16,647 bases of DNA from a virus (lineage: Duplodnaviria > Heunggongvirae > Uroviricota > Caudoviricetes): the IMG/VR virus record IMGVR_UViG_2531839195_000012; one strand, 5' to 3'. Below, in pieces: positions 8,996-14,417 of this stretch. The notes under the pieces were generated by a model. That model was not told the DNA's origin. It searched no databases and saw only the letters and a program-made list of their open reading frames with translations. Within the stretch, counting starts at the first letter, position 1; the number at the start of each line of letters is the position of its first letter. The translations under genes were made by a program, and so were the position numbers.

Positions 8996-9855
8996 TGAGG
9001 TGTACTGGCAATAGCGGACACTACCATTGTTCTTTTTTTAAGCAGCCATCTGATGATATTTTCCCTGAAGGCTGCCGGGGAGATATTCCCCAGACGAGAG
9101 TGACGACGCTGACGATTGTAGAAAATCTCAATGTATTCCCGTATTACTGAGATGGCTTCATCCCGGTTATTAAAACGATAGTGGCTCAGGCTCTCATTTT
9201 TCAGCGTTCCCCAGAAGCTTTCCATCGGAGCGTTGTCGTAACAGTTACCTTTACGCGACATTGATGTTTTCAGACCAAACTGCTCCTGTATGACCCGGTA
9301 ATCGTATGCGCAGTACTGTGAACCTCGATCAGAGTGGTGGATTAGCCCGGCAGGTGGGCGCTGGCTCCTGAGCGCCATAAACAGGGCTTTACCTGTCAGC
9401 TCTTTTGTCATGCGCTCTCCCATGGCGTAGCCGACAATTTCGCACGTATAAACATCTTTGATGCCAGCGAGGTACAACCATCCCTCCTGTGTGGCAACAT
9501 ACGTCAGGTCCGCCACCCAGACCTGATTTGGTGCTGTAGGAGCGAACGTCTGGTTCAGCAGATTTGGCGCAACTGGCAGATTGTGGTTCGGGTTCGTAGT
9601 CGCTCTGAACTTGCGTTTCTGCTTACAGCGTAGCCTCAGCTCCTTACGAAGACGTGCCAGTCGGTCACGACCAACGATGATGCCATTCTCTGCCAGCTCC
9701 GTCTGGAGCCGCCGGGTTCCATATGTTTCGCGAGTGCGGATATGTGCCACCTTAATCTCCAGTTTTAGCCGCTCATCACTTTGTTTTCTGTCTGAGGGTT
9801 CATGCTGTACCCAGTTGTAATAACCGCTCCTGGATACACCAAATACCTGACACAT
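8935..9855 (-). CDS. IS600 OrfB transposase; the 3' end is frameshifted so the ORF reads through the IS terminus into flanking DNA
   Basis: Identical to the other OrfB copies through ...ISPAAFRE, then diverges. The 3' end shows three homopolymer length differences versus the other two copies (A4 vs A5, A7 vs A6, A2 vs A3) around 9045..9075. Confidence 0.85.
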
Positions 9856-10257
9856 CGCTTCAACAGGAAATTGTTGTCGCCATTGTTCGATTAACGCGTA
9901 TTTTTCAGCGACTCCTGTGCAAAATACGCTGTTGCTTTTTTTAATATATCTCGCTCAAGGCGAGCTTCATTTAACGCCTTACGCAGTTGCAGAATTTCAG
10001 ATTCCAGTTCAGCCAGCGTGCGGGAACCAGGAGTACCGAGCCCTTTTCTGGCGGCGGTAACCCATTGTCCTAAAGTGCCTTCAGGAAGGAATAATCGGGA
10101 AGCGTCTTCACTGATCGAAAGTTGATTTACAAGAACCGTTCTGACAGCTTCGGCTTTGAACTCTTTAGAGTAACGTTGGGTTTTTCTGCTCATTATTAGC
10201 TCCTTCTGATGCCATTCTATTTCAGGAAGGAGTGTCCGTTAAACTCAGGCTACCTCA
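8996..10257 (-). mobile_element. IS600 (IS3 family), complete copy, minus orientation, no target-site duplication
   Basis: Termini TGAGGTGTACTGG (8996..) and ...CTCAGGCTACCTCA (..10257) are reverse complements of the ends of the plus copy. Contains orfA and orfB. Flanking triplets CCC and GAC differ. Confidence 0.9.
9891..10193 (-). CDS. IS600 OrfA (HTH transposase subunit)
   Basis: 100-aa ORF MSRKTQRYSKEFKAEAVRTV...; differs from the plus-copy OrfA at three residues. Confidence 0.9.
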   Translation of the reverse strand: MSRKTQRYSKEFKAEAVRTVLVNQLSISEDASRLFLPEGTLGQWVTAARKGLGTPGSRTLAELESEILQLRKALNEARLERDILKKATAYFAQESLKNTR

Positions 10258-10355
10258 GACGTCCCGTATGATGGATATGAAATCAAGACAATCACACATC
10301 CTGAACCGCCCCGGGAATCCTGGAGACTAAACTTCCTGAGAAAGAGGTAAACAGG

Positions 10356-10680
10356 ATGACTAAAAATACTCGTTTTTCCCCGAAGTCCGTCAACGGGCAG
10401 TCCGTATGGTTCTGGAAAGTCAGGGCGAATATGACTCACAATGGGCGACAATTTGTTCCATTGCCCCAAAGATTGGCTGTACGCCGGAGACTCTGCGTGT
10501 CTGGGGTCGCCAGCATGAGCGGGATACCGGGGCGGTGATGGAGGGCTCACCACCGCTGAACGTCAGCGTCTGAAAGAGCTGGAGCGTGAAAATCGTGAAC
10601 TGCGCCGCAGTAACGATATCCTTCGCCAGGCTTCCGCTTATTTTGCGAAGGCGGAGTTCGACCGCCTCTGGAAAAAATGA
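10356..10680 (+). pseudogene. IS629 orfA, disrupted by single-base losses in a C run (10378..10381) and a G run (10529..10532)
   Basis: ORF 10356..10538 starts MTKNTRFSP then leaves the expected frame; the expected C-terminal ...[36 protein letters not shown] is readable in a different frame ending at the TGA at 10678..10680. Confidence 0.75.
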
Positions 10681-11563
10681 TGCCACTGCTGGATAAGCTG
10701 CGTGAGCAGTACAGGGTCGGACCGCTATGCAGCGAACTGCATATTGCCCCGTCAACGTATTACCACTGTCAGCAACAGCGACATCATCCGGATAAACGCA
10801 GTGCCCGTGCGCAGCGCGATGACTGGCTGAAGAAAGAGATACAGCGCGTATACGATGAAAATCACAAGGTATACGGTGTAAAGTCTGGCGTCAGTTGTTA
10901 CGGGAAGGTATCAGAGTGGCCAGATGCACTGTGGCACGTCTCATGGCGGTTATGGGACTTGCCGGTGTTCTCCGGGGTAAAAAAGTCCGTACGACCATCA
11001 GCCGGAAAGCCGTTGCCGCAGGCGACCGCGTAAACCGTCAGTTCGTGGCAGAACGACCTGACCAGCTGTGGGTGGCTGATTTTACTTACGTCAGCACATG
11101 GCGGGGCTTCGTCTATGTGGCGTTCATCATTGATGTGTTTGCCGGATACATCGTGGGGTGGCGGGTCTCATCGTCCATGGAAACGACATTCGTGCTGGAT
11201 GCACTGGAGCAGGCGTTATGGGCCCGTCGACCGTCCGGCACGGTCCATCACAGTGATAAAGGTTCTCAGTATGTATCGCTGGCCTACACACAGCGGCTTA
11301 AGGAAGCCGGATTACTGGCATCAACAGGAAGTACAGGCGACTCGTATGACAACGCGATGGCGGAGAGCATCAATGGTCTTTACAAAGCGGAGGTAATACA
11401 CCGTAAGAGCTGGAAAAACTGTGCAGAAGTGGAACTGGCCACACTAACGTGGGTGGACTGGTATAACAATCGACGATTGCCGGAAAGGCTGGGCCACATC
11501 CCTCCGGCAGAAGCAGAAAAAGCTTATTATGCTTCCATCGGAAACGATGATCTGTCAGCCTGA
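10677..11563 (+). pseudogene. IS629 orfB transposase, frameshifted near 10880 (apparent 4-bp deletion)
   Basis: ORF 10677..11033 ([12 protein letters not shown]...KVYGV) and ORF 10895..11563 ([15 protein letters not shown]... with the DDE core) are consecutive parts of one transposase in different frames. Confidence 0.8.
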
Positions 11564-11605
11564 GTTCACAGATAAAACACTCTCCAGGAAACCCGGGGCG
11601 GTTCA

Positions 11606-12561: not shown

Positions 12562-13154
12562 AGGCTGAAGCATGGCGGGTCAGCAAACTTGGTGAAATAC
12601 CTGATATAACGTTCGAGGAAGCGTGTGTCAGGTGGCTTGAAGAGAAAGCACATAAAAAATCACTGGACGATGACAAAAGCCGGATCGGATTCTGGCTTCA
12701 ACATTTCGCAGGAATACAACTAAGAGACATTACTGAATCAAAAATTTATTCAGCAATGCAGAAAATGACGAACCGGCGTCATGAGGAAAACTGGAAACTC
12801 AGGGCAGAATCATGCAGAAAAAAGGGAAACCTGTTCCAGAATACACGCCAAAACCAGCGTCCGTTGCAACGAAGGCTACGCATCTTTCATTTATAAAGGC
12901 CCTACTAAGAGCCGCAGAGCGTGAATGGAAAATGCTGGATAAGGCACCAATTATTAAAGTGCCTCAACCAAAGAATAAACGGATCCGCTGGCTGGAGCCC
13001 CATGAAGCACAAAGGCTGATTGATGAATGTCCGGAGCCATTAAAGTCTGTTGTTGAATTTGCACTGGCAACAGGCTTAAGACGCTCGAACATCATCAACC
13101 TTGAATGGCAACAAATAAATATGCAGCGCCGGGTGGCATGGATAAACCCGGAAG
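12438..13154 (+). pseudogene. phage tyrosine integrase, N-terminal and core-binding part; frameshifted within an A6-G3-A3 tract (12818..12829) and interrupted by IS600 at 13155
   Basis: ORFs 12438..12896 ([24 protein letters not shown]...) and 12812..13162 (...[18 protein letters not shown]..., box I) are consecutive integrase segments in different frames; the second ends 8 bp into the IS600 left end. Confidence 0.85.
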
Positions 13155-13218
13155 TGAGGTAGCCTGAGTTTAACGGACACTCCTTCCTGAAATAGAATGG
13201 CATCAGAAGGAGCTAATA

Positions 13219-13521
13219 ATGAGCAGAAAAACCCAACGTTACTCTAAAGAGTTCAAAGCCGAAGCTGTCAGAACGGTTCTTGAAAATCAACTTTCGATCA
13301 GTGAAGGCGCTTCCCGATTATCTCTTCCTGAAGGCACTTTAGGACAATGGGTTACCGCCGCCAGAAAAGGGCTCGGTACTCCTGGTTCCCGCACGCTGGC
13401 TGAACTGGAATCTGAAATTCTGCAACTGCGTAAGGCGTTAAATGAAGCTCGCCTTGAGCGAGATATATTAAAAAAAGCAACAGCGTATTTTGCACAGGAG
13501 TCGCTGAAAAATACGCGTTAA
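13219..13521 (+). CDS. IS600 OrfA
   Basis: 100-aa ORF, IS3-family OrfA with a leucine-zipper-like C-terminus. Confidence 0.9.
   Translation: MSRKTQRYSKEFKAEAVRTVLENQLSISEGASRLSLPEGTLGQWVTAARKGLGTPGSRTLAELESEILQLRKALNEARLERDILKKATAYFAQESLKNTR
13470..13477 (+). promoter_or_regulatory. candidate programmed -1 ribosomal frameshift site (A7G slippery run) for the OrfAB fusion transposase
   Basis: A-AAA-AAA-G near the end of orfA; orfB is in the -1 frame relative to orfA (orfA frame 1, orfB frame 0). IS3-family elements typically frameshift at an A6G/A7 motif. Confidence 0.5.
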
Positions 13522-13556
13522 TCGAACAATGGCGACAACAATTTCCCATTGAAGCG

Positions 13557-14375
13557 ATGTGTCAGGTATTTGGTGTATCCAGGAGCGGTTATTACAACTG
13601 GGTACAGCATGAACCCTCAGACAGAAAACAAAGTGATGAGCGGCTAAAACTGGAGATTAAGGTGGCACATATCCGCACTCGCGAAACATATGGAACCCGG
13701 CGGCTCCAGACGGAGCTGGCAGAGAATGGCATCATCGTTGGTCGTGACCGACTGGCACGTCTTCGTAAGGAGCTAAGGCTACGCTGTAAGCAGAAACGCA
13801 AGTTCAGAGCGACTACGAACCCGAACCACAATCTGCCAGTTGCGCCAAATCTGCTGAACCAGACGTTCGCTCCTACAGCACCAAATCAGGTCTGGGTGGC
13901 GGACCTGACGTATGTTGCCACACAGGAGGGATGGTTGTACCTCGCTGGCATCAAAGATGTTTATACGTGCGAAATTGTCGGCTACGCCATGGGAGAGCGC
14001 ATGACAAAAGAGCTGACAGGTAAAGCCCTGTTTATGGCGCTCAGGAGCCAGCGCCCACCTGCCGGGCTAATCCACCACTCTGATCGAGGTTCACAGTACT
14101 GCGCATACGATTACCGGGTCATACAGGAGCAGTCTGGTCTGAAAACATCAATGTCGCGTAAAGGTAACTGTTACGACAACGCTCCGATGGAAAGCTTCTG
14201 GGGAACGCTGAAAAATGAGAGCCTGAGCCACTATCGTTTTAATAACCGGGATGAAGCCATCTCAGTAATACGGGAATACATTGAGATTTTCTACAATCGT
14301 CAGCGTCGTCACTCTCGTCTGGGGAATATCTCCCCGGCAGCCTTCAGGGAAAAATATCATCAGATGGCTGCTTAA
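13557..14375 (+). CDS. IS600 OrfB transposase (DDE); the frame is open upstream of the first ATG, consistent with expression as an OrfAB fusion
   Basis: 272-aa ORF identical to the window-start copy except one residue (QEQSGL vs QEQFGL). Confidence 0.9.
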   Translation: MCQVFGVSRSGYYNWVQHEPSDRKQSDERLKLEIKVAHIRTRETYGTRRLQTELAENGIIVGRDRLARLRKELRLRCKQKRKFRATTNPNHNLPVAPNLLNQTFAPTAPNQVWVADLTYVATQEGWLYLAGIKDVYTCEIVGYAMGERMTKELTGKALFMALRSQRPPAGLIHHSDRGSQYCAYDYRVIQEQSGLKTSMSRKGNCYDNAPMESFWGTLKNESLSHYRFNNRDEAISVIREYIEIFYNRQRRHSRLGNISPAAFREKYHQMAA

Positions 14376-14417
14376 AAAAGAACAAATGGTAGTGTCCGCT
14401 ATTGCCAGTACACCTCA

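Follow-up and report, generated by a model that had tools for sequence, protein, structure and literature searches.

Two copies of the insertion sequence (IS) IS600 lie in inverted orientation around a 2.9-kb segment of the virus record IMGVR_UViG_2531839195_000012. This raises the question of whether the pair produced the gene order found there, by inverting the segment or by carrying it in, or whether the two copies are themselves traces of other events. The stretch of DNA analysed, referred to here as the window, is 16,647 nucleotides long. Very likely it represents the serotype-conversion region (SHI-O) of a Shigella flexneri chromosome, located between yaiC/adrA and thrW-proA and made up of phage remnants that are piled up and joined by IS elements; as part of the same reading, the inverted IS600 pair did not create the arrangement, one copy being a plain insertion and the other an old rearrangement joint. 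Both copies are old, fixed scars in SHI-O, and the phenomenon is already known and ordinary for S. flexneri genomes.

The inverted IS600 pair and the segment between its copies

The minus-strand copy, IS600(-), is located at 8996..10257 and the plus-strand copy, IS600(+), at 13155..14417; both are complete. A repeat search revealed inverted arms at 9059-10257 and 13155-14353 (1199 nt, 99% identity), continued at 8996-9065 and 14348-14417, with 2897 nt in between, and an alignment of the two copies (1262 and 1263 nt) showed that they differ by eight substitutions and, towards the right end, by a few indel positions. This confirmed an earlier note on this DNA, which had described inverted IS600 copies of about 1.26 kb around a 2.9-kb segment. 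The assignment to IS600 is based on the length of about 1264 bp and the imperfect terminal inverted repeats TGAGGT...ACCTCA; the element has 1264 bp in relatives and the shortfall in the window is due to homopolymer loss. In IS600(+), which runs from TGAGG at 13155 to CTCA at 14417, Pfam domains were found in orfA (HTH_Tnp_1, in 13219-13521) and orfB (HTH_21, rve, rve_2 and rve_3, in 13557-14375), and RefSeq features under the IS600 matches are named “IS3-like element IS600 family transposase”. A third copy is cut by the window start, which leaves its 3' 717 bp (1..717, plus strand) with the right end abutting a tail-fibre gene of phage SfII. Its first 300 nt repeat 13701-14417 directly with 100% identity, and it also forms an inverted repeat with 9059-9711, so that it brackets 718..8995 together with IS600(-) in inverted orientation, as had been noticed before.

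The ends of the elements were read directly. IS600(+) is flanked by a 3-bp target-site duplication, AAG (13152..13154 and 14418-14420), where SfII has a single AAG at the same position, and is a simple insertion in an integrase gene. IS600(-) has no duplication and is flanked by CCC (8993-8995) and GAC (10258-10260); since these flanks do not match, it is not a simple insertion. A duplication was also absent from IS629, an IS3-family element at 10302..11605 (plus strand, ends TGAACCGCCCC...GGGGCGGTTCA), and its flanks, TCC and GAA, stem from different phage types, an ASCH-domain gene and a DUF551 gene. The earlier description of the three elements was correct in these points. Its interpretation holds in part. 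The missing duplications do reflect past IS-linked rearrangement: since each of the two elements joins DNA of different origin, IS600(-) and IS629 are rearrangement joints; IS600(-) connects a fragment of a lambdoid ASCH gene to the 3' end of an SfX-type integrase gene, and IS629 connects the same ASCH fragment to an SfII/SfV-type DUF551 gene. IS-linked deletions and swaps are indeed seen at these very copies in sister strains, but there was no sign of an inversion of the 2.9-kb segment.

Behind IS629 the segment contains the 3' remnant of an SfII/SfV-type DUF551 gene (11606..11906, plus strand; orf29 homologue, 98.7-99.0% to SfII and SfV) and a hypothetical gene (11906..12211, plus strand), a homologue of SfV orf28 whose protein is identical in E. 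coli thrW prophages, where it is encoded just upstream of xis and int. They are followed by the excisionase gene xis (12127..12561, plus strand), at the position of xis in SfII/SfV, and by the 5' 717 bp of an SfII/SfV-type integrase gene (12438..13154, plus strand; 99% to SfII/SfV integrases), which ends at the IS600 insertion. Pfam matches to DUF551, HTH_17 and the N-terminal part of Phage_integrase agreed with the gene content given in the note. The 3' part of the integrase gene continues at 14418..14865 (plus strand; 97.6-97.8% to SfII/SfV integrases), and the DUF551-orf28-xis-int region of SfII and SfV matches 11603-13158 and 14418-14925 at 98-99% identity. Apart from a dead IS629, the segment consists of nothing but gene remnants. 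An index of public assemblies lists an open reading frame across the junction of the IS629 end and the DUF551 remnant in 780 blocks, of which 54 have contigs longer than 1 Mb.

No RefSeq complete E. coli genome record covers at least 80% of the window. Related layouts were located by a look-up with three of its proteins, which led to complete assemblies carrying the region (L006-L045); judged by gene content and published maps, these would be S. flexneri. A look-up with the orf28 homologue gave only E. coli thrW prophages and was useful for the native gene order alone, which is DUF551-orf28-xis-int-att-proA (10 loci).

The orientation of the segment was determined from a table of the 30-nt sequences flanking each IS600 end, compiled for all loci. 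Because both inner ends face the left end of IS600, short-read contigs cannot tell the two orientations apart and only complete genomes were counted; ten loci from complete assemblies (nine genomes) and the window carry both copies. In each of them IS600(+) pairs the 5' part of the integrase gene (AAG) with its 3' part (AAG), and IS600(-) pairs the SfX-type integrase fragment with the inner spacer, which is either the ASCH fragment or a swapped sequence of 124 bp. A flipped or hybrid pairing was not seen in these ten loci or in the window, and the single orientation holds across three larger arrangements, with proA, SfX or oacB/yaiC to the right. Therefore, the proposed inversion of the segment by way of the IS600 pair was not borne out, and the idea of an invertible segment is unsupported. 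A programmed switch of the invertase or fim type does not fit either, with one orientation found and with repeats that are whole IS elements.

The proposed inversion was also thought to bring the xis/int 5' region next to the C-terminus of the other module's integrase. This would not reunite one gene, since that C-terminus is of a different integrase family and belongs to the host backbone. The fragment in question (8636..8995, minus strand) comprises the 3' 360 bp of an SfX/HK542-type integrase gene, with 98.6% nucleotide identity to the integrase of HK542/mEpX2/HK75, 98.3% to the integrase that SfX prophages have at their proA end (L029, L032, L035) and, by alignment, approximately 62% to the SfII/SfV integrases. 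Its protein is 99% identical to HK542 Int and 61% to SfII Int, and the HK542 record describes its own integrase as similar to that of phage SfX. The junction of IS600(-) with this fragment is also present in loci without gtrII (L030, L034). This “first integrase” is a remnant of the backbone next to the thrW att and not part of the gtrII phage SfII. An offset of about 90 bp between the two integrase/IS600 joints, from which it had been concluded that they are not the same insertion event, is real: in SfII coordinates (L001) it amounts to 88 bp (12286 against AAG at 12374-12376). Since the fragments are different genes (approximately 62% identical at the nucleotide and 61% at the protein level), differing junction positions are trivially expected and are silent on the history of the locus.

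Four components beside thrW

The stretch 1557-14925 was found contiguous at 99.84-99.85% identity in L039 and L040, and L041 and L044 are colinear with it except that L041 has a swapped spacer and L044 lacks 25 bp within IS600(-); proA-proB follows directly in all four. In CP058589.1 (L037/L026), 1534-16647 is contiguous at 99.7% and is followed by SfX. Since these relatives have either proA or SfX after this layout, the window would be a gtrII-type backbone of the usual kind, into which an SfX prophage integrated at the att site adjoining the interrupted integrase gene. Four components may be distinguished in it.

The first would be a backbone scar in the order IS629, 44-bp ASCH-gene fragment, IS600, 3' end of the SfX-type integrase gene and att, which is common to loci of quite different gtr content. 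In L030 and L034 it leads straight into SfX without gtrII. The flank pair of IS600(-), that is the ASCH fragment and the SfX-type integrase 3' end, was found in 14 loci from about 11 assemblies and in the window. For the element at 10302-11605 we presume the name IS629: it has an rve transposase (Pfam rve/HTH_21), ends TGAACCGCCCCGGG...CCCGGGGCGGTTCA and 98.9% identity to E. coli IS3-family copies, which RefSeq annotates only as “IS3 family transposase”, and its 1304 bp fall short of the roughly 1310 bp of IS629 by homopolymer losses at 10377 and 10528. The name also agrees with a published map, which draws IS629 and IS600 at this place (PMC3306764); the same source places an integrase remnant, IS600 and IS629 between attB and yaiC of a serotype Y host, matching the scar in L030 and L034. 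The 44-bp spacer between IS600(-) and IS629 (10258..10301, plus strand) had been overlooked. It is an internal fragment (nt 181-224) of a lambdoid/P22-like ASCH-domain gene and all of its matches (43-44 nt, 93-100% identity; 680 E. coli genomes, 68 phages) fall within the ASCH-domain gene, which in lambdoid/P22-like phages lies a few hundred bp upstream of xis/int. No match was found in SfII or in the SfV and HK542 regions examined. The spacer was considered as the SfII baseplate side of the tail-fibre joint; this was rejected because it has no SfII match and is an ASCH-gene fragment.

The second component would be a piece of an SfII/SfV-type phage, consisting of the truncated DUF551 gene, orf28, xis and int, whose integrase gene took up the simple IS600 insertion with its AAG duplication. 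The third would be a remnant of SfII from the tail fibre to gtrII-gtrB-gtrA that was once integrated at thrW and lost approximately 32 kb, with IS600 at the deletion joint. This joint is demonstrated in relatives, and the window holds only the right half of its IS600; left of the orthologous copy, related genomes have an SfII xis remnant or IS629. The remnant itself (718..8575, minus strand) corresponds in one piece to SfII 16968-24898 at 99.6% identity, and the colinearity continues at this identity through gtrII-gtrB-gtrA to att at 8639. The fourth component would be an SfX prophage, integrated later at the att site adjoining the interrupted integrase gene; its addition is demonstrated by comparison with the genomes that have proA in its place. 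The two gtrA-gtrB pairs of the window are only 93% identical in the repeat search, indicating different phage origins.

Within the SfII remnant, a tail-fibre gene (727-1377, plus strand) and a tail-fibre assembly gene are followed by an acyltransferase gene (~2555-3603, minus strand), the IS4-family element ISSfl9 (~4054-5243, plus strand), gtrII (~5632-7089), gtrB (7086-8015) and gtrA (8012-8374), the last three on the minus strand. The neighbouring integrase fragment is not the int gene of SfII. The SfII genome record has ISSfl9 at the corresponding position, so that the element, which separates the acyltransferase gene from gtrII, is phage-borne and not a chromosomal acquisition. Next to gtrA lies the first copy of the att core (8576..8639), a phage-carried 3' part of tRNA-thrW of 64 nt, which is the exact reverse complement of the second copy (14862..14925), the point at which relatives diverge to proA, oacB or SfX. 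E. coli prophage matches end at 8626, and a complete tRNA was not found in the window. The left end of SfX (15215..16647, plus strand) comprises gtrA (15215-15577), gtrB (15574-16491) and the 5' end of gtrX (from ~16504), the gtrX start being 99.3% identical to SfX L05001. The prophage was assigned to SfX by gtrX next to gtrA-gtrB; its P22-like body lies outside the window and is seen after gtrX in CP058589.1, the genome with the same arrangement, where it includes tailspike and gp16 genes. The strain has the gene set of serotype 2b (type II with group 7,8 antigens), as the combination of gtrII with gtrX is, by established serotyping knowledge, taken to mean.

The closest described system is SHI-O of S. 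flexneri 2a (strains 301 and 2457T), which extends from thrW-proA to yaiC/adrA and is alike in having gtrA-gtrB-gtrII, little other SfII DNA, an integrase remnant, IS600 and IS629. For these strains, the small amount of SfII DNA retained and IS-linked inversions around the island have been reported (PMC1550401). Unlike them, the window has an SfX prophage at att in place of proA and, therefore, gtrII and gtrX together; a literature search found no account of gtrX, gtrII and IS600 in combination. Tandem lysogeny at tRNA-thrW, in which a second phage enters the att site of the resident prophage, has been described for SfX followed by SfI (Sun et al. 2011), and tandem integration at thrW has been demonstrated (PMC3306764). 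It gives gtrA-att-int or int-att-gtrA junctions, attP-like within a chromosome, and both att junctions of the window are of this kind, but in the present case the incoming phage lies beside an integrase disrupted by IS600, its neighbours are decayed remnants and one block is in inverted orientation. A third relative is the oacB element, a “transposon-like structure” upstream of adrA according to the passage of PMC4159516 that cites Wang et al. (2014). In L038, the xis-int::IS600 segment is linked through att to oacB and is bounded by IS629/IS600 beside yaiC/adrA, whereas oacB is absent from the window. As for the IS elements, IS600 and IS629 serve as recombination substrates in Shigella generally, with copies lacking duplications at deletion and inversion joints; IS-mediated inversions are reported for S. 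flexneri (PMC1550401), and the sister strains show deletions between direct copies as well as adjacent deletions. Against this background the window has nothing unusual, and one of its copies is a plain insertion with the expected 3-bp duplication.

Inversion of the gtrII block and competing explanations

The gtrII block is flipped compared to the native prophage orientation, and the two gtr modules of the window face in opposite directions. Judging from the junctions in related genomes, the DNA between two inverted att sites would have been inverted and SfX would have lysogenized the strain afterwards, without recombination between IS600 copies. In L038, att links the interrupted integrase gene to oacB, and the gtr phage resident there has its own integrase linked to proA, likewise through att, as in the native orientation; in some genomes, the xis/int::IS600 segment is linked to oacB in this way. 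2a-type genomes show the reverse pairing: the integrase beside the oacB arm is intact and carries the SfII-like allele (L006), and the one beside the proA arm is the interrupted integrase (L039). According to an allele table, the window, L038 and L039 share the 3' allele next to IS600(+), with one single-nucleotide polymorphism (SNP) and one homopolymer indel as the only differences, and roughly 10 sites separate this allele from the intact SfII-type integrase of L006/L027. Partners change in the att core region, at a point between 14837 and 14925. Since the arms are exchanged exactly at the att core while the alleles stay, the block between the inverted att sites has been inverted, and the inversion has separated the xis-int::IS600 segment from oacB in the window and in the 2a-type genomes. 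In L006 (7166-7891), L038 (12860-13586) and L039 (12872-13600), the exchanged arms and the integrase alleles kept on their own sides can be read directly. In CP055138.1 (L009/L027) the gtrII remnant is still native, in the order tail fibre, IS600, truncated xis, intact int, att and gtrA/B/X. The crossover at the att core may have been made by a phage integrase or by RecA. These breakpoints are a small and possibly undescribed detail of a known hot spot.

A model with a triple tandem array (an X-type phage, SfII and SfX), two IS600 inversions and an IS629 deletion was rejected; under this model, the 5' part of the ASCH gene should lie left of the IS600 at the window start, whereas relatives have the SfII xis remnant or IS629 there.

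Several points weigh against the reading of the window as an SHI-O pile-up that the IS600 pair did not create. Either a deletion between oppositely oriented remnants or an inversion confined to one remnant may have produced the IS600(-) and IS629 joints. The polarity of the att inversion follows from the native prophage orientation and not from a phylogeny. As the window begins within its first IS600, the left half of the model depends on related genomes, which differ from one another. Low-frequency flipping within populations may have escaped notice in ten loci from nine genomes. Finally, SNP patches common to both IS600 copies in some genomes show that the copies interact. Orthologous IS600 copies of the window and of L026-L045 differ between strains by a mosaic of shared SNPs at IS600 positions 153-980, and in L044 the bases at positions 168-169 are reciprocally swapped between the minus and the plus copy. 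Such patches may stem from gene conversion, a double crossover or mis-assigned repeat reads.

A competing explanation, in line with the note, is an invertible cassette. If RecA recombined the inverted copies, flipping the 2.9-kb segment so that both orientations coexist in populations or among strains, 1.26 kb of inverted repeat with about 99% identity would be an adequate substrate, and two successive crossovers could produce the reciprocal swap in L044. Orthologous copies also show patchy allele exchange between strains, and recombination between IS600 copies has taken place here in other strains (L031/L033, L009/L027). The SNP patches could, however, equally have arisen by gene conversion with further IS600 copies or through read mis-assignment in repeat regions, and no flipped pairing occurs in the ten loci from complete assemblies across their three macro-arrangements. 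The flipped product would moreover be a dead chimera of two 61%-identical integrases lacking about 88 bp, so that nothing would select for the flipped form, and we regard this explanation as unlikely. A further reading, in which phage integrase made the gtrII inversion on two inverted att sites, one on the oacB and one on the proA side, while the IS600 pair still exchanges sequence and occasionally flips the 2.9-kb insert, is a possibility that we would entertain only tentatively; if it is true, the recombinase of a resident prophage rearranged the chromosome between decayed prophages. It is very improbable that IS600-flanked units, either 1-10257 with gtrII or 8996-14417 with xis/int', moved in as blocks like composite transposons. 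Both units are bounded by inverted IS600 copies, and the neighbouring oacB unit is called “transposon-like” in the passage of PMC4159516 mentioned above, but the outer flanks of 8996-14417, CCC and AAG, are no duplication of a unit and the AAG duplication belongs to IS600(+) alone. The gtrII unit, whose left flank (for 1-10257) is outside the window, continues through att in the synteny of phage and prophages, and the ends of the units are explained by att and phage gene order. Hardly worth considering is a repeat misjoin in an error-prone assembly. The window does have about one single-base deletion per kb, nearly always in a homopolymer run, compared to all relatives, which is typical of an unpolished long-read assembly, but the same order and junctions are found in independent complete assemblies.

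The reading of the window as SHI-O with two IS600 scars leaves the inverted copies as substrates for homologous recombination and adjacent deletion. The resulting map shows how O-antigen-modifying genes (gtrII and gtrX) became fixed in the Shigella chromosome after their phages had been dismantled, and it accounts for the breaks of short-read assemblies at this locus and for integrase and gtr genes of different phages lying side by side. Its importance beyond such bookkeeping is small.

Changes in sister strains and sequence quality

In L031/L033, an IS600 truncated by 79 bp is fused to IS629 and joined directly to the 3' part of the integrase gene, the product of a deletion between two directly oriented IS600 copies. 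L010 has lost the whole 2.9-kb segment by an adjacent deletion, and IS600(+) abuts nucleotide 9388 inside IS600(-) with its left end. The 44-bp spacer is replaced by an unrelated sequence of 124 bp in five loci from four assemblies (L006, L036, L041, L043 and L045), indicating exchange with another IS600/IS629 locus. The replacement (L036 8630-8753) encodes MNNNNTLYVGLDVHKESITVA, which resembles the start of an IS110-family transposase. In CP058589.1, a 12-kb unit in the order IS629, truncated IS600, gtrII block, IS600 and 44 bp is present twice in tandem (L007, L008; record 355954-388669), giving two gtrII clusters in this genome.

The end with which the IS629 on the yaiC/adrA side abuts one and the same chromosomal nucleotide (...GCACTATC) varies, being the right end in some genomes and the left end in others (L034 6224-6340 and L030 6380-6500 compared to L007 7400-7520 and L031 6255-6375). 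Recombination between inverted IS629 copies was rejected as the cause of these opposite orientations because it cannot change which IS end abuts the flank. A gene encoding a group II intron reverse transcriptase lies inside the yaiC-proximal IS629 in L011 (1850-3373), L012, L013 and L009 (20063-20651).

The single-base homopolymer deletions of the window are located at 1711, 3427, 4439, 5102, 5846, 6060, 6659, 9026, 9058, 10377, 10528, 12817 and 14479. They break gtrII, the SfII acyltransferase gene, the ISSfl9 transposase gene, IS629 and both halves of the interrupted integrase gene. The frameshift in the integrase 5' part at 12817, for example, is a loss of 1 nt in an A-run that is absent from relatives. 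The frameshifts in the integrase, gtrII, acyltransferase, ISSfl9 and IS629 genes were also considered as real pseudogenes, which was rejected because the single-base losses are not found in any relative; the broken reading frames are most likely assembly errors.

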